From NCBI GenBank assembly GCA_905233625.1, contig CAJOFJ010000011.1:13378-77377 (forward strand): a DNA stretch of 64,000 bases. The letters are read 5' to 3'. The stretch comes from an uncultured Bacteroidales bacterium (GTDB taxonomy: Bacteria > Bacteroidota > Bacteroidia > Bacteroidales > WCHB1-69). This document shows, piece by piece, positions 59,801 through 64,000 of the stretch (position 1 is the first letter of the stretch; each line of letters begins with the position of its first letter). The notes beneath the pieces are model-generated. The model ran no database searches and was not told where the DNA came from. It saw only the letters and a list, made by a program, of their open reading frames with translations. A program made the translations under genes and the position numbers.

Positions 59801-60077
59801 GCAGACGGTGGAATTCCTCATTATTGGCCAGCACATCAGGAGAACTGATGCGCAGCACCGTTTTGATGGCCTCATCCTGCACGGAATAAGGCAAAGCCGG
59901 ATTGAGCCGTTTCACCGCCTTCTCCAATTTATCGCGAAGCACCACGGTCTCAAAACTCTCGCGCAAAGGATTCTCACCATCGGGTGCGATGTCGGGACCA
60001 TAGAAATACTTGTATCCCTTGGCCTTCAGCAGGTCGATAAGCATCTGTTCTATGTCGGATTCGTGGAGTGGAGGCAT
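56862..60077 (-). CDS. hsdR: Type I restriction endonuclease subunit R
   Basis: N-terminal PD-(D/E)xK ([19 protein letters not shown]), SF2 motor ([26 protein letters not shown]), and a C-terminal HsdR-type helical domain. 1071 aa and apparently intact. Confidence 0.95.
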
Positions 60078-60082
60078 AATAC

Positions 60083-60592
60083 TTATAATTGAACAGAAGG
60101 AATATATTTGGTAATATCTACAACAGGCAGATGACTGTCATTAGCATTCACTGTAGAGATAAATTGGGAACATTCCTCGGAAGAAATCTTTCCCCTGACA
60201 AATGCATAATACAGAAAATCCAGCGTGGTCAGGTATTTGATTTGTTCCCTGCAACAATATTCTTTAATATCTTTCAGGTTACTGCTTCCAATAACATGAT
60301 GTGTGAACTTGCAGTATGCCATACAGGAACTCTCCCCTTTGCCAAAATTCTTGAGAAGAAGGGCATACTCTTTCAGCATGGCTCCTGTGGGATTGAATGG
60401 TTCTAGCGTGATGTTTTTCAGGAAATGCACCTGGTTATCCACCTGATTACGGATAGAATGAATTTCCTCGTAAACAGAGCTGAGGATCACATGCTCGTAT
60501 TCTGAGAGAATATCGGGCAAAAGGCTCAGCATACCACCCTTTGAAAAGTGAATCAGCACATCAGCATCCAGAACAATTCTCACTTTTGCCAT
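60083..60592 (-). CDS. PIN-like domain protein (COG2405/DUF3368-like), possibly catalytically degenerate
   Basis: [12 protein letters not shown]...[10 protein letters not shown]...[11 protein letters not shown]...[10 protein letters not shown] follows the PIN beta1-D / E / GE pattern, but SSN sits where a DD is usual. ATG 60592 chosen. 5-nt gap to hsdR. Confidence 0.5.
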
Positions 60593-61295
60593 AACCGATA
60601 AGATTAAGAAGTTCGAGATAGTGGCCTTCGGATATGCGGTTCTCATCAAAAAGTTTACGGGCTTTGGAACCGAAGTCGCCGATAATCAGACCTTCATTGC
60701 CTTTCTGGTACAGGTCAAGGTCGTATCCTCGCAACCGGGATTCTGTAGTAATGCTGCGATTCATCATCTCGTCAGCGCATGCTGGAGTTATAACCCGCAA
60801 TTCCTTTAAGCGCAGGACCAATGTCTGGTGTGAAATACCGAACAGATGTTCCAAGCGGAGTAATGTGTCAATTTCAACCTCCTTGTTAGAGATTTCAGCG
60901 GTGGATATGTTCTGTAGCAAGCCCTCTTTCGGCATCAACAATGCAGAGGCGAACATGTTGGCAGATCGTTCAGCAGGGTCGGTATCGTTGTCTCTGCTGC
61001 AAAAATGCGGTTTGGGATTATCGTCGAAATACAGGTGGTACAACTCATGGGCAATAGTGAAATGCTGTCTGCCACGGGTTGAGTTGCTGTTCACCAACAT
61101 GAACTGATGCTTTTTGTCGGATGAGGCAAGTGACATCCCAAACAGATTGTCAGACAAGGGCCGATATACCGTCATAATATTCAGCTGCCGCAATGCGGTT
61201 TTCATATTGACGGGCTCGTTGCTGGATATGCGGAGATATTCACTACGCATTTTAGCCGCGAGGAGATCAGCTGTTTCAAGGTTCAACTTTTTCAT
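60561..61295 (-). CDS. ImmA/IrrE-family (COG2856) Zn-metallopeptidase
   Basis: HFTIAHELYHLYFD (HExxH) at the typical position, and ERSANMFASALLMP downstream. Confidence 0.85.
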   Translation of the reverse strand: MKKLNLETADLLAAKMRSEYLRISSNEPVNMKTALRQLNIMTVYRPLSDNLFGMSLASSDKKHQFMLVNSNSTRGRQHFTIAHELYHLYFDDNPKPHFCSRDNDTDPAERSANMFASALLMPKEGLLQNISTAEISNKEVEIDTLLRLEHLFGISHQTLVLRLKELRVITPACADEMMNRSITTESRLRGYDLDLYQKGNEGLIIGDFGSKARKLFDENRISEGHYLELLNLIGYGKSENCSGC

Positions 61296-61627
61296 TTTGC
61301 CAGTAATCTTTCCATTTTCAAATAGTGAAGCACAATGTTCTTGAAGGCAGAGACTTCGTGCATATCGCTTGCGGAGAGGTCATGGGCGCGGAATGCACAG
61401 GCCAGTTCTGCTTGCAACAGTTCCGGATTTTCCTCAAAAAACAGGGCGAGGTCGCAGCCGAACAGAGCCGCGGCTTTCTCAAGGGCCTCCAATGGCATCT
61501 CACGTTCCCCCGACTCATAGTTGGCATACGCCGACCGGCCGATATTCAGATACTCGGCCACTTTCTCCTGCGTAAACCCGCTGTCTTCACGTAGAATTTT
61601 GAGATTCCGTCCGATAGTTTTTTTCAT
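61292..61627 (-). CDS. XRE-family helix-turn-helix transcriptional regulator
   Basis: IGRNLKILREDSGFTQEKVAEYLNIGRSAYANYESGEREMPLE is a classic HTH_3. ATGA overlap with the ImmA gene. Confidence 0.9.
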   Translation of the reverse strand: MKKTIGRNLKILREDSGFTQEKVAEYLNIGRSAYANYESGEREMPLEALEKAAALFGCDLALFFEENPELLQAELACAFRAHDLSASDMHEVSAFKNIVLHYLKMERLLAK

Positions 61628-61683
61628 ACTGTTTTGGTTTGTTGTTTGTTGGTTTTTCCCAAAAAACTAAGGGTTAGAAAAAC

Positions 61684-61728
61684 CGTGGCAAAAATACAAA
61701 ATTTATTTGAATTCTAATATTTGCCACG
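61684..61728. promoter_or_regulatory. Inverted repeat CGTGGCAAA-N27-TTTGCCACG overlapping a minus-strand TAttTTTG box (61689-61696): candidate operator/promoter of the XRE operon
   Basis: 9-bp perfect arms at 61684-61692 and 61720-61728. CAAAAATA on the plus strand is TATTTTTG on the minus strand, 61 nt upstream of the XRE ATG. Confidence 0.35.
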
Positions 61729-61907
61729 TCCTTTTTTTGAATTTAGTATGGATAGGATATTTTGATTCTGATATTTGAACGTTTGAAGTTTCGCTTAGTA
61801 CTTTTTTGGAAGATTTTACATTAGAATTTGCGAGTTTGTAAACATCACATTATCTAATTCTTTCGCCATATTCAAATCGTTTTGCATAGATAGTCAATTG
61901 TCAAATA

Positions 61908-61958
61908 CTATTGGCAGATAAGCAGCTGCTCTATGTCGGATTCGTGAAGTTGGGGCAC
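61908..61958 (-). pseudogene. Relic of an hsdR 5' end (16 codons then stop)
   Basis: GTG 61958 onward reads [16 protein letters not shown], against the authentic hsd[18 protein letters not shown]. The DNA 61917-61964 aligns with 60036-60082 (6 substitutions plus one 1-nt indel, by hand). Confidence 0.6.
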
Positions 61959-61960
61959 AA

Positions 61961-64000
61961 TTACAAATATCTAATAATTGATTGTTTCTTATCCTCTGGG
62001 ACTCCATTGATGCTTTGCTTAAACACAATTTCCCTTTCATTGATACTCTCTATATGTTCATCCAACGCCTCAATATCTTCAAAAGTCATCCCATACCTTA
62101 TCATCCAAATATACCGCTCATTGTCGGTTCCATATTTCACGTATTTTGCCAAACTCAATGCTCTTTCATCATTTGTTTTTTCGTAATACAAGTAAAACGC
62201 GGCATAAAATATATCACTTAATTTAAAACCTATTAATTTGTCAATATAGTCGTACGTGTCATAAACAATTCTATCATAATCGACATCTTTTGCCTTTGTT
62301 CCTTTTTCCAAAATACTATAGGCTCTTAATCCTTTTTGGGGAAGATCTGCAAATCCCGTAATAAATTTTGCATCCAAATCATCTGTCCTTTTCCCTAATC
62401 TTTCCAATCTTTTTCTATCCGACGAACGGCTTACATAAGAATACCTATACCAGCATACATTTTTGAAAGTTTTGCCATATATCCGCCAAAGCATAATCTT
62501 TACAGCAGTATGAAGCACATTTTCTTCTCCATCAGACAAATCCCTTCCTAAATACAGCCTATATAATCTATCGAAAGTGTAATAGATTTCGCTCCTATCA
62601 TTACTAATATCTTCAAAGGTAATCAGTCTTCCATTCTCATAAAAAGAATCCATGATTCGCTTAATAATAGTATCAGATTCTTCTATAGAAAACTTTTCTA
62701 AATCATTGTTTGTAAGATTATACTGGTCTGAAAAAGTGTCATTCAAAATTGCATCCTTAAAATCGGAATAATCAGAACGCTCTTCTTCGTGCTTATCCAA
62801 TACAGAAACATTGTCCAAAACATTGGGTTTCTTGAGTATATCCCTGAATTTACTCATGTTGGAGCTTAACACAATTACATAACCATAATCAAATTTCACA
62901 TCTTCAGTTGAACGCCCTGCTCGTCCAATAAGATTTTTCATCTCCAATGGTTTGCTCGCTTCAAACCTATCCAACACAACAATATCAAATGGCATATTGA
63001 TGCCTTGTTCAAGTGTAGAAGTAGCGAAACAAAGTTTACAAAAACCATCTCGAGTATATTGCTCCATGATACTTCTTGACTGAAGTGGCAAGGAACCGTG
63101 ATGCGTAACTATTCCTCTTTTCAACAATGAAATCATTTGTGAATAATGATCTTTATTAGCGATGGTATCCCCTCCGGTAAATGATTTCAGTTCGTTAATG
63201 TAATAACTTATTTTATCGTTGTCTATCTCTTCACACAAATCAATGTATCGTCCATATTCGTTCAAGAAACCTTTGTTGTAAATCTTTGATTTCGAAACAT
63301 AAAACAATACCGAACCACCATCTTTTATGCATTTCTCAATCGGGTCAAATGAGCACTGTATTTTCTGTCTTCCCATTATGGTTTTATCTATTCCAAAATG
63401 GTAAAATACATTGTTATTATCCACGCAAAAATACAATTGTCCAACATTCTTTTGCTCATACAATCTTGACTCTGCCACTTTATCATTCAAATGATTCTTT
63501 ACCAATTGGGCTTCTGGGTTATTAATAAATGGATGGGCAAATACAAACTTCGCTTCTGGATATGCTTTGTAACATCTTCTAACAATACTATCATAAAACA
63601 GGCCTCTAGTTGATTCTTCATCACTCAATTGAGCTTCATCAAACAAAAACAAATCAACATTAAAGTTATCCTTCTGCTTAAACAAATCCCTACAGCGTTC
63701 AGGTGTAACTACAAATATATTTCTCTTTGCTTTCGCCGTATTAATCTTATCAATAAAAGTTAGAATATTGATGCTTTTATCTGGCATTAAATCGCAAAGC
63801 CTCAAATAGTATTCATTGATTAAAGCTCTTGACGGCACAACAACAACCGTATCATTGGCACCTTTCTCTATCAGATTCCTAAACACAAAAGATTTCCCAG
63901 TACTTGTTGGAGCAGAAAAACTGAAACAATTTGCTTTTGATATGTTCTTAACAATATCAGCTTGCACAGGAGTGTAATACTCGTCATAAGTGTCCCTGAT
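61961..64000 (-). CDS. Ski2-like SF2 (DExx-box) helicase with a ~300-aa uncharacterised C-terminal region; N-terminus outside the window
   Basis: The frame stays open to the window edge (IRDTYDEYYTPVQADIV...). Motif I APTSTGKS, motif II LFDEAQL, motif V ATSTLEQGINMP, motif VI IGRAGRS. Sampled lines give ~25-35% G+C. Confidence 0.8.
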   Translation of the reverse strand: MRDTYDEYYTPVQADIVKNISKANCFSFSAPTSTGKSFVFRNLIEKGANDTVVVVPSRALINEYYLRLCDLMPDKSINILTFIDKINTAKAKRNIFVVTPERCRDLFKQKDNFNVDLFLFDEAQLSDEESTRGLFYDSIVRRCYKAYPEAKFVFAHPFINNPEAQLVKNHLNDKVAESRLYEQKNVGQLYFCVDNNNVFYHFGIDKTIMGRQKIQCSFDPIEKCIKDGGSVLFYVSKSKIYNKGFLNEYGRYIDLCEEIDNDKISYYINELKSFTGGDTIANKDHYSQMISLLKRGIVTHHGSLPLQSRSIMEQYTRDGFCKLCFATSTLEQGINMPFDIVVLDRFEASKPLEMKNLIGRAGRSTEDVKFDYGYVIVLSSNMSKFRDILKKPNVLDNVSVLDKHEEERSDYSDFKDAILNDTFSDQYNLTNNDLEKFSIEESDTIIKRIMDSFYENGRLITFEDISNDRSEIYYTFDRLYRLYLGRDLSDGEENVLHTAVKIMLWRIYGKTFKNVCWYRYSYVSRSSDRKRLERLGKRTDDLDAKFITGFADLPQKGLRAYSILEKGTKAKDVDYDRIVYDTYDYIDKLIGFKLSDIFYAAFYLYYEKTNDERALSLAKYVKYGTDNERYIWMIRYGMTFEDIEALDEHIESINEREIVFKQSINGVPEDKKQSIIRYL

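Follow-up and report, generated by a model that had tools for sequence, protein, structure and literature searches.

A probable relic of the hsdR start at a seam between cargo cassettes in a rumen Bacteroidales Type I R-M operon

How does cargo enter a tightly packed operon without breaking it? Defence genes embedded in Type I restriction–modification (R-M), BREX and similar operons are well documented and have been exploited to discover systems; examples of accessory genes within Type I R-M operons are PrrC in EcoprrI and the rlo genes of Campylobacter jejuni. Another case is TgvAB of V. cholerae VPI-2 (PMC11411939), and 'guilt by embedding' has been put forward (Payne et al. 2024, bioRxiv 10.1101/2024.01.29.577857). 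The embedding papers cover what is embedded, not how: recombination, direct repeats and hotspots are nowhere mentioned in the text of the Payne et al. preprint, and we found no explanation of cargo entry in the literature searched. The question is raised by an operon of an uncultured rumen Bacteroidales bacterium, contained in the 64-kb stretch of DNA analysed here (the window), which is 100% identical to locus L001 (L numbers denote the loci compared). On the L001 map, hsdM, hsdS and hsdR share one strand and are interspersed with unrelated genes (hsdM-HEPN-MNT::hsdS-HamA-HamB-XRE-ImmA-PIN-hsdR, hsdR being the last gene), which fits a Type I R-M operon with embedded cargo. As with the embedded Type I accessory genes already described, genes of defence or toxin-like type occupy the same strand as hsdM, hsdS and hsdR and lie between them. 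The operon genes concerned are all on the minus strand, and the features are as follows.

56862–60077, minus strand: hsdR, Type I restriction subunit, 1071 aa (Pfam HSDR_N, SWI2_SNF2, T1RH-like_C)
60036–60080, minus strand: live repeat copy, 3 leader nt plus hsdR codons 1–14
60083–60592, minus strand: PIN-like protein (DUF3368-type), 169 aa (precomputed Pfam DUF3368; PADLOC PDC-S70, E = 1.5e-5)
60561–61295, minus strand: ImmA/IrrE-type metallopeptidase (Peptidase_M78), 244 aa (Pfam, E = 3.9e-17)
61292–61627, minus strand: XRE-family HTH regulator, 111 aa (Pfam HTH_3, E = 3.6e-13)
61683–61728, minus strand: predicted XRE operator/promoter, inverted repeat CGTGGCAAA (61728–61720) ... TTTGCCACG (61691–61683)
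61816–61869, minus strand: 17-codon stub ORF, MAKELDNVMFTNSQILM followed by a stop (junction comparison)
61859–61911, minus strand: P module, promoter-like leader ending in the cargo start ATGGCGAAAGA (nhmmer, E = 6e-15; junction alignment)
61917–61961, minus strand: probable fossil hsdR start (R'), 3 leader nt plus codons 1–14 (nhmmer, E = 8e-07)
61961–64000, minus strand: HamB-like helicase, 3' part (Hachiman-type, Ski2/Hel308-like; Pfam DEAD and Helicase_C)

The start of the helicase gene lies outside the window; complete, the gene spans L001 5808–8117 (769 aa). Its product matches HamB1 in PADLOC (E = 1.5e-61) and HamB in the PDB (8vx9_B, E = 1.8e-11) and is, like HamB of Hachiman, a superfamily-2 helicase. 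A 230-aa ORF upstream, likewise outside the window, which overlaps the helicase start and accompanies the helicase in all loci, is the putative HamA; a search for a DUF1837 nuclease partner gave this ORF no sequence match in Pfam, PADLOC or the PDB. The XRE protein has a capH-like match in PADLOC (capH, E = 1.7e-6) together with control-protein matches, and the ImmA protein matches PDC-M69B (E = 6e-29) and capP (E = 1.2e-22); with the palindromic operator upstream, the XRE and M78 proteins are predicted from sequence to be a CapH/CapP-like regulator pair. The PIN-like protein carries an 11-letter N-terminal motif, had no match in the current Pfam release and gave an unusable single-sequence AF2 model (pLDDT 40); its gene stops 5 nt ahead of the hsdR ATG. 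Domain searches of the ORFs detected neither an integrase nor a transposase in the L001 operon, and no recombinase domain in it or close by on either side.

A 45-nt direct repeat (60036–60080 and 61917–61961), the longest in 55000–64000, brackets the XRE, ImmA and PIN-like genes. Its copies are identical at 39/45 positions (87%) without gaps, and one 1-nt indel, GTA(A)TT, extends the match into the hsdR leader, in agreement with the six substitutions and one 1-nt indel over about 47 nt that the first-pass annotation had counted. The alignment also reproduces the abrupt end of similarity that it had placed at 61916/60035. The downstream copy had been described as hsdR codons 1–14 plus 5 leader nt at 60036–60082, correctly so: the hsdR ATG is at 60077–60075, hence codons 1–14 occupy 60077–60036, and the leader lies at 60078–60082. 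The upstream copy, drawn as 61917–61964, does reach the helicase TAA, located at 61963–61961. Alignment against shuffled controls, set as a test beforehand, gave a Smith–Waterman score of 60 for R' against the live hsdR start, compared with 15.0 ± 2.3 (maximum 29) in 2000 shuffles and 14.4 ± 2.2 (maximum 26) in 5000 random windows drawn from the same sequence.

The start codon of R' is mutated to GTG, and a pseudo-ORF (61958 to 61908) runs for 16 codons and then ends in TAG (GTG CCC CAA CTT CAC GAA TCC GAC ATA GAG CAG CTG CTT ATC TGC CAA TAG). R' adjoins the stop codon of the HamB-like helicase, lines up colinearly with L054, in which the HamB–hsdR junction is intact, and differs at 3 positions from the live start of L015 and at 6 from the hsdR of its own locus. 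We consider it likely that these 45 nt are a defunct duplicate of the hsdR start that has stayed behind at the seam between two cargo cassettes.

A junction some 100 nt long has R' as its left half and continues into the promoter-like module P; junction alignment shows this combination to be conserved across loci. P has a −7-type box, TATCTATG (61892–61885), one base off the TAnnTTTG form that is retained in L065 and L062 (TATCTTTG). The 17-codon stub occupies the position at which Fic or YhcG cargo genes begin in other loci, and is taken to be the remnant of an earlier cargo gene. In the operator of the XRE cassette, a TATTTTTG box (61696–61689) overlaps the right half-site of the inverted repeat, which is kept upstream of XRE in L001, L034, L038, L044, L051 and L061. 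The first-pass annotation had taken 60083–61916 as one XRE-ImmA-PIN unit; this does not hold, because P is followed only by the stub and then by an XRE cassette with its own operator, starting near 61728, so that the bracketed block is composite.

Relatives of three locus types retain the junction in intact form. In L054–56 the HamB TAA is followed by TT and the hsdR ATG, with the flank as in the window (...TTAGATATTTGTAATT), and in L066 and L068 the gap between HamB stop and hsdR ATG is 4–5 nt. These loci bear out the ancestral adjacency of helicase stop and hsdR start that had been proposed, and the further claim of a former coupling between helicase and hsdR stands as far as adjacency goes. 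Scanning 68 related loci with profiles revealed 16 fossil hsdR starts, distributed over 14 of the loci; every one shares the strand of hsdR and lies upstream of that gene or of its expected place; a 17th listed match (L053 5354), a real start cut by a contig end, was left out of the count. Five internal 90-nt hsdR profiles matched more than once in none of the 68 loci scanned. The aligned relics are 26–69 nt long (153 nt in one case). Behind them lie XRE-ImmA-PIN-like, Fic, YhcG/DUF1016, AAA_14/DUF4143 and IS200-like transposase cargo, and these at least five kinds support the suggestion of the first-pass annotation that the hsdR 5' boundary is reusable and that relatives would carry other cargo there behind a duplicated hsdR start. 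A Y1 transposase is among the cargo only in L010, L039, L063 and L064 and is missing from the window locus. Serial relics occur in L005 (relic-Fic-relic-YhcG-hsdR), whose junctions are 97/120 identical, and hsdS starts show a like footprint in L001 (3231–51 and 4023–43) and in L063. Genes are closely packed before hsdR, with a median gap of 5 nt and a gap of ≤12 nt in 28/36 loci. Since the loci are mostly MAG or metagenome contigs, chimeric assembly at repeats is possible; the independent finding of the L001-type structure in L065 and of the L051 type in three assemblies counts against it. All P-type junctions may trace back to a single founding event, and independent insertions would therefore be fewer than the loci.

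Comparison between loci placed identity breaks at the relic. L001 and L051 are 94% identical over L001 5053–8161, to the last relic base, and 75% identical beyond; against L054, a 93.5% block extends into nt 1–42 of L054's own real hsdR. Identity is high from the hsdS 3' end across HamA and HamB to the 45 nt and lower on either side, a pattern that suits an import of the helicase cassette equally well or better. We infer that arrival of HamAB beside a relic already in place is no less likely than insertion of the XRE block. The break at the end of R' (L001 versus L051) upholds recombination at the junction, as earlier proposed, but the proposed insertion of the XRE block is not favoured over HamAB import, and the first interpretation as a whole is partly supported. 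An identical relic–P join lies behind HamB in L001 and L065 and behind a 205-aa ORF in L062 (96.9% identity), and is therefore either older than its link to the helicase or has moved; an identical join of relic and XRE operator lies behind HamB in L051 and behind hsdS-P in L061. Sliding-window comparison of hsdR itself gave mosaic identity with no clean breakpoint.

Our preferred reading, which we hold to be probable, is of a modular Type I R-M operon whose seams are marked by hsdR-start relics and whose cassettes are swapped by homologous recombination, the arms being provided by the conserved ends of hsd genes and by relics of them. Stop-to-start packing would leave no intergenic space for new cargo before hsdR, and cargo would therefore move as a unit of its own promoter, the cargo and the first 45–54 nt of hsdR. 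This unit would recombine with the conserved first 14–18 codons of the resident hsdR, yielding upstream gene, old hsdR start (the relic), cargo and complete hsdR in that order. The relic and the conserved hsdS 3' end could then serve as short homology arms, so that neighbouring cassettes might be exchanged independently by ordinary homologous recombination, without a dedicated recombinase in the locus. In this locus, the HamA/HamB cassette, which elsewhere abuts hsdR, is separated from it by relic, P, stub and XRE-ImmA-PIN. We infer that recombination between such arms, about 45 nt long, is of the RecA type; against this counts that 45 nt at 80–90% identity is a poor RecA substrate. The founding join of relic and promoter would be an illegitimate step, a tandem-duplication or circle junction of the promoter–cargo–hsdR 5' unit. 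Only short duplications would last, since between long direct repeats the cargo would be lost again by deletion. A bolder version, which we regard as rather unlikely, would make rumen Bacteroidales Type I R-M operons recombinase-free, integron-like platforms. Cassettes of own promoter, cargo and the first 45–54 nt of hsdR or hsdS would actively excise as circles and insert anew at any related hsdR start; the short 5' coding stretch would genuinely be an attachment site open to repeated use, and the relics would record the order of acquisition.

Local tandem duplication in this lineage, with decay of the upstream copy and no exchange between loci, is already disfavoured, and we consider it very unlikely. 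The relic-to-promoter join is formally a tandem-duplication junction, and relics do decay (the start has become GTG here, and L051 and L005a carry an in-frame TAG). However, the relic is closer to live starts of other loci than to its own (3 versus 6 differences), identity drops from 94% to 75% where it ends, and the same join is present behind unrelated upstream genes. Break points concentrated at codons 14–18, direct copies in one orientation, identical joins seen again in different contexts and cassette-like arrays in L005 and L061 would also suit site-specific recombination, in which the hsdR 5' sequence is att-like and a trans-acting tyrosine or serine recombinase inserts circular cassettes in the fashion of an integron or of an integrative element that restores the end of its target gene. 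We judge this highly improbable, given that the operons of L001, L051, L054 and L065 contain no recombinase gene, that repeat length ranges over 26–153 nt with copies 78–96% identical, that left ends of cargo share no motif apart from their own promoters and that a repeat search found no terminal inverted repeats at the window locus.

It is very unlikely, in our estimate, that the relic is kept for a function, whether as a short leader ORF, as a translational-coupling element behind the helicase or by supplying the upstream (−33) portion of promoter P, although its core GAATCCGACATAGAGCAG is well conserved in many relics and relics always lie directly upstream of a promoter-like element. Starts are lost, in-frame stops occur and decay is strong in L004 (31/46), L005a (31/40) and L041 (21/27); length and distance to P vary; no Rfam family matched and structure was not significant (z = −1.57); and in L010, P follows hsdS directly without a relic. 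That the similarity is due to chance, or reflects a generic intergenic repeat with no relation to hsdR, has a negligible probability and no point was found in its support: it is refuted by the shuffle controls and the intact L054 junction. With ≤3 mismatches allowed, the 21-nt core of the repeat occurs exactly twice in the 64-kb window (0.01 expected), and P occurs once (nhmmer); neither matched viral contigs or plasmids, and both are confined to Type I operons among the 68 loci.

Several known systems resemble the modular arrangement that we prefer. Like integron arrays, the operon places ordered, same-strand, promoter-poor or self-promoted cargo beside a conserved platform, with serial gain in L005 and L061; unlike integrons, it has no attC or attI, its seams are imperfect, variable-length copies of a coding 5' end, intI was absent from the operon ORFs and near flanks and no attC-type inverted repeats were present at the seams. 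As in Campbell-type integration, with attL and attR at tRNA or protein-gene ends, direct gene-end repeats bracket the insert and leave the target gene intact. Here, however, the bracket holds only XRE, ImmA and PIN-like genes without an integrase, the repeats agree at 39/45 positions where an att core would be exact, they vary in length by locus, and inserts are only 0.8–1.9 kb, and we rejected an integrative element with att duplication. A transposon or IS insertion was also rejected: the duplications (26–153 nt) are not fixed in length, terminal inverted repeats are lacking and a transposase is absent here. Defence-island hotspots, as far as PMC11411939 conveys them in citing Hochhauser et al. 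2023, share variable cargo between conserved arms and high-identity patches that end in arms; by comparison, the arms here are tens of bases long and inside one operon (hsdS 3' end, hsdR 5' end), and they are multiplied as relics, so that each cassette has its own. In hsdS shufflons and epigenetic invertons (PMC7672463), conserved hsd segments are likewise recombination substrates that diversify a Type I locus, but shufflons use inverted repeats in hsdS, are invertase-driven and change specificity, whereas direct repeats of hsdR (and hsdS) starts alter cargo content here.

The literature searched contained no report of fossil gene starts at seams, of a junction about 100 nt long common to several loci or of identity that breaks at a relic. 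The footprint consists of a fossil copy of the downstream gene's first 14–18 codons at each seam, an identity break exactly at the fossil and one seam reused behind different genes. If general, it would offer a simple sequence signature by which to delimit embedded cassettes and find new cargo, would make acquisition order readable from relics and suggests a design rule for gene insertion into such operons; the loci also show the Hachiman-like pair, XRE-ImmA-PIN, Fic, YhcG and HEPN-MNT modules to be interchangeable parts of one scaffold. Judging by the PDC naming, the PADLOC candidates PDC-M69B and PDC-S70 themselves appear to stem from embedded genes of this kind.

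The hsdR protein was traced to its source, an 86-kb ENA contig fetched as L001, which is 100% identical to the window over the 11 kb compared (window = 70078 − L001). The L001 operon runs hsdM, HEPN (NTase_sub_bind), MNT::hsdS, a 230-aa ORF, helicase, relic (a dead copy of the hsdR start), XRE, ImmA, PIN-like and hsdR. All of the repeat-associated genes of the window lie on the minus strand:

60077 to 56862, minus strand: hsdR, with HSDR_N, SWI2_SNF2 and T1RH-like_C domains
60592 to 60083, minus strand: PIN-like ORF, 169 aa
61295 to 60561, minus strand: ImmA/Peptidase_M78 gene
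61627 to 61292, minus strand: XRE HTH gene
entering from beyond the window, stop at 61963-61961, minus strand: DEAD/Helicase_C gene, 769 aa
53770-56784, minus strand: C10 (streptopain-like) cysteine peptidase, 1004 aa, secreted, directly downstream of hsdR

A repeat search recovered a 45-nt direct repeat (60036-60080 and 61917-61961; 39/45 identical), the longest in the last 9 kb of the window. Local alignment of the two copies scored 60, against 15.0 ± 2.3 (maximum 29) for shuffled controls and 14.4 ± 2.2 (maximum 26) for random windows from the same sequence; two copies of the repeat's 21-nt core are present in 64 kb, where 0.01 would be expected. Chance similarity of the two copies is excluded. 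The factual statements that the first-pass annotation had made on the repeat from a hand alignment were all borne out, including its coordinates, the reading of the relic as a 16-aa peptide and the break in similarity at 61916/60035. The relic begins with GTG, the live hsdR with ATG.

We compared the genomic contexts of close homologues of HamB, the helicase upstream of the relic. In L054-56 (HamB 93% identical), HamB is followed by TTAGATATTTGTAATTATGACCCAACTCCACGAATCCGACATAGAGCAAATGCTCATCGACCAG, that is, TAA, TT and the live hsdR; at the matching junction the window has TTAGATATTTGTAATTGTGCCCCAACTTCACGAATCCGACATAGAGCAGCTGCTTATC followed by TGCC. L066 and L068 (HamB 88%) carry an hsdR of a different subfamily 4-5 nt past the HamB stop. 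The adjacency of helicase stop and hsdR start that had been proposed for an ancestor is therefore intact in L054-56, and also in L066 and L068. The architecture and relic of the window recur identically in L065 (HamB 95%), in a different chromosomal neighbourhood. Four further loci, L057-L060 (HamB 88% identical), have hsdM, hsdS, a split HamA (our label for the 230-aa partner ORF) and HamB; since they lack hsdR and have HU-HIG and unrelated genes behind HamB, we regard them as a methylase-only operon remnant.

Relics of the hsdR start are found well beyond this operon. We fetched 48 genome loci with close hsdR relatives, mostly from rumen Bacteroidales MAGs, in which hsdM and hsdR lie about 3.5 to 9 kb apart. 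A scan of 68 loci with a profile of hsdR nt 1-90 gave 17 matches without an hsdR body behind them. One, at L053 5354, is a real hsdR start cut by the contig end and was left out; the remaining 16 relics sit in 14 of the 68 loci (L001, L005, L007, L010, L013, L034, L039, L051-53, L061 with two, and L062-65). Each of the 16 has the orientation of hsdR and lies upstream of it or of its expected place on contigs that end first, and five internal 90-nt hsdR profiles gave more than one match in none of the 68 loci. Weaker, decayed relics were detected in L004, L005 (a second one), L025 and L041. Relic and live start align over 26-69 nt (153 nt in L013) at identities of 78% to 96%. The cargo between them, that is, the accessory genes ahead of live hsdR, varies among loci, and in L005 the seams are serial (relic-Fic-relic-YhcG-hsdR), with two junctions identical at 97/120.

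Cargo between relic and live hsdR start
L001, L051, L065: XRE-ImmA-PIN
L004: Fic and wHTH
L005: Fic, then YhcG/DUF1016
L007, L034, L041: YhcG/DUF1016
L010, L039: IS200-like Y1 transposase with repeat-rich sequence
L013: AAA_14/DUF4143

The starts of hsdS show the same footprint. In L001, an exact 21-nt direct repeat (3231-3251 and 4023-4043) brackets HEPN-MNT, leaving MTEWKEYKFNI and a stop upstream, with the live hsdS fused to MNT; the dead hsdS-start ORF, MKEIIGKEPMTEWKEYKFNI and a stop, is located after hsdM. In L063 (1348-1383 versus 3207), a dead MSEWKEYKLGDEVI with its stop precedes a 555-aa cargo ORF and then the live hsdS. Separately, an IS200-like Y1 transposase (151 aa) occupies the cargo position ahead of hsdR in L010 (5790-7041), L039, L063 (7058-8075) and L064 (6358-7375); an internally repetitive 185-263-aa 'ORF' resembling REP-type repeats lies before it, and in L063 and L064 it is accompanied by a YhcG gene fragment. 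This suggests that a REP/RAYT-like element has colonised a cassette.

In an alignment of the relic regions, a module of about 50 nt, termed P, begins 0-15 nt past the relic; its form is ATTTGACAATTGACTATCTTTGCAAAAyGAwTTGAAyATGGCGAAAGA. P includes TATCTTTG, which matches the Bacteroidetes -7 promoter consensus, TAnnTTTG, and it terminates in the cargo gene's start codon; the unrelated Fic and YhcG genes all begin MAK(E/D) or MAN there. P is confined to these operons; in L010 it stands without a relic, directly behind hsdS and a hairpin. It occurs once in the 64-kb window (61911-61859), where its -7-type box is TATCTATG, one base from consensus. Behind it lies just a 17-codon stub, MAKELDNVMFTNSQILM plus stop (61869-61816), and the XRE cassette starts about 90 nt past the stub with an operator of its own, the inverted repeat CGTGGCAAA-N28-TTTGCCACG (61683-61728, minus strand), whose right half-site is overlapped by a TATTTTTG box. 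The inverted repeat is kept upstream of XRE in L001, L034, L038, L044, L051 and L061, six loci between which cassette identity has fallen to 64-75%, and is probably an autoregulatory operator of the XRE-ImmA module and may also gate expression of PIN and hsdR. The first-pass annotation had described a single XRE-ImmA-PIN block between the repeats. The brackets stand, but the single unit does not, since P and the stub precede a separate XRE operator: the bracketed 1.83 kb is a composite in which the XRE-ImmA-PIN cassette follows what is left of an older P-driven cargo.

In L061 (reverse complement, 661-737), an hsdR-start relic lies directly behind P, in register at the ATG of P. This single locus raises the possibility that P was originally the promoter of hsdR itself. 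A metagenome scan with the relic-P pattern found four loci, a small sample. In the sample containing the exact sequence of the window (run X1), four other contigs match 61859-61908; they share P alone and diverge on both sides, one of them leading to the 3' end of an hsdS and another to a further relic. A single rumen community thus contains P-bearing junctions in several of its operons or strains.

Relics also mark boundaries of exchange. L001 and L051 are 83% identical in hsdM, 94% identical over a block (L001 5053-8161) that contains the last ~75 nt of hsdS, HamA, HamB and the relic and ends at the relic's last base, and 75% identical past it, in XRE-ImmA-PIN-hsdR. Against L054, the same block is 93.5% identical and extends into nt 1-42 of the live L054 hsdR, the remainder of which is 83% identical. 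Sliding-window comparison of hsdR genes gave no clean breakpoint for a right-hand crossover, identity being mosaic at 70-93%. The joins themselves recur behind different genes. HamB precedes the relic-P join (CTGCTTATC to TGCCAATAGTATTTGAC) in L001 and L065; in L062 the same join follows an unrelated 205-aa ORF and is itself followed by Fic (96.9% identity over 96 nt). The relic-XRE-operator join (ATGCTCATCGAT to AATGATATTGATTTTTCTGTGGCAAAA) comes after HamB in L051-53 and after hsdS-hairpin-P in L061. The window's PIN-stop/hsdR-start junction has its counterpart in L034 and L061 as a PIN-stop/relic junction, with further P-driven cargo behind it (YhcG and Fic, respectively).

These comparisons contradict a purely local duplication of the hsdR start, which accounts neither for the identity break at the relic's end between L001 and L051 nor for the recurrence of the same joins behind different genes and of the PIN-stop junction; moreover, the relic of the window differs at six positions from its own live start and at only three from that of L015. 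Site-specific recombination is disfavoured as the origin of the seams because the duplications are neither uniform nor exact and the left ends of the cargo are unrelated. That the relic is kept for a function is unlikely: start codons have disappeared, stops interrupt the reading frame (TAG in L051 and L005a), some copies are strongly decayed, and the 343-nt spacer of the window gave nothing significant in an Rfam scan and no significant structure on RNA folding (z = −1.57).

On this comparative evidence, mostly from metagenome assemblies, we propose that cargo enters as a unit of promoter, cargo and hsdR 5' end. The gene upstream of hsdR ends a median of 5 nt from its ATG (≤12 nt in 28/36 loci), so there is no neutral intergenic target before hsdR. 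The incoming unit would recombine within the first 14-18 codons of hsdR, the best-conserved DNA stretch of the gene's 5' end, leaving the resident start behind as a relic. Formally, a relic-to-promoter join is the new joint that forms when the promoter-cargo-hsdR 5' unit is tandemly duplicated or closed into a circle. P-type joins resemble one another closely enough to go back to a single founding event or a few, and the XRE-type, L013 and L025 joins are independent. Existing relics and the hsdS 3' end could then act as arms for double-crossover exchange, which would explain both the identical joins behind different genes and the high-identity patch around HamAB. The surviving relics may be short because direct repeats of greater length would cause the cargo to be deleted again. 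The operons encode no recombinase gene, a repeat search found no terminal inverted repeats, and searches of viral contigs (two patterns) and plasmids matched neither element, giving no sign of a phage or plasmid vector.

The XRE block had been thought to have been placed at the HamB/hsdR junction by recombination. Exchange at the relic is upheld by the contrast of 94% with 75% identity, and two orders of events may account for this locus. An XRE-bearing segment may have recombined into a HamB-hsdR locus, as first proposed, or the HamAB cassette with 45 nt of hsdR may have been imported beside an existing L062-type relic-P junction; the two-sided identity patch slightly favours HamAB import.

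Accessory and defence genes embedded in Type I operons are well established, PrrC and the C. jejuni rlo genes being examples. TgvAB in V. cholerae is another (PMC11411939), and such embedding has been covered systematically (Payne et al. 2024, bioRxiv 10.1101/2024.01.29.577857), in a preprint that does not mention recombination, direct repeats or hotspots. In our literature searches, no account of fossil hsd gene starts at the seams between cassettes came up, so the relic footprint and the docking rule it implies, as distinct from the embedding itself, appear to be new.

The helicase matches PADLOC HamB1 (E = 1.5e-61) and PDB HamB 8vx9_B (E = 1.8e-11). Pfam, PADLOC and PDB sequence searches found no recognisable family for its 230-aa partner, so the pair is putatively Hachiman-like, on the evidence of its HamB half. 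ImmA matches PADLOC PDC-M69B and capP; the PIN-like protein matches PDC-S70 and has a precomputed DUF3368, with no match in the current Pfam release and an unusable single-sequence AF2 model (pLDDT 40). The PDC model names appear to derive from the work of Payne et al. In L044 (9880-10000), the PIN-like gene is internally deleted and retains, ahead of hsdR, only about 14 codons from its N-terminal end and the final few, so it is dispensable in that lineage. The C10 peptidase, which carries an Inhibitor_I69 pro-domain and a type IX secretion sorting domain, is also the neighbour in L005; downstream neighbours differ in most other loci, and the operon thus occupies different chromosomal contexts. 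The MNT of the HEPN-MNT pair is fused in frame to the HsdS N-terminus (L001 3718-5127, outside the window; junction ...GITIYEKKS-EWKEYKLGD...). The fusion, 459-484 aa long, recurs in several independent loci (L012, L028, L062, L065 and L066), and MNT and hsdS are separate genes in L014, L026 and L050.
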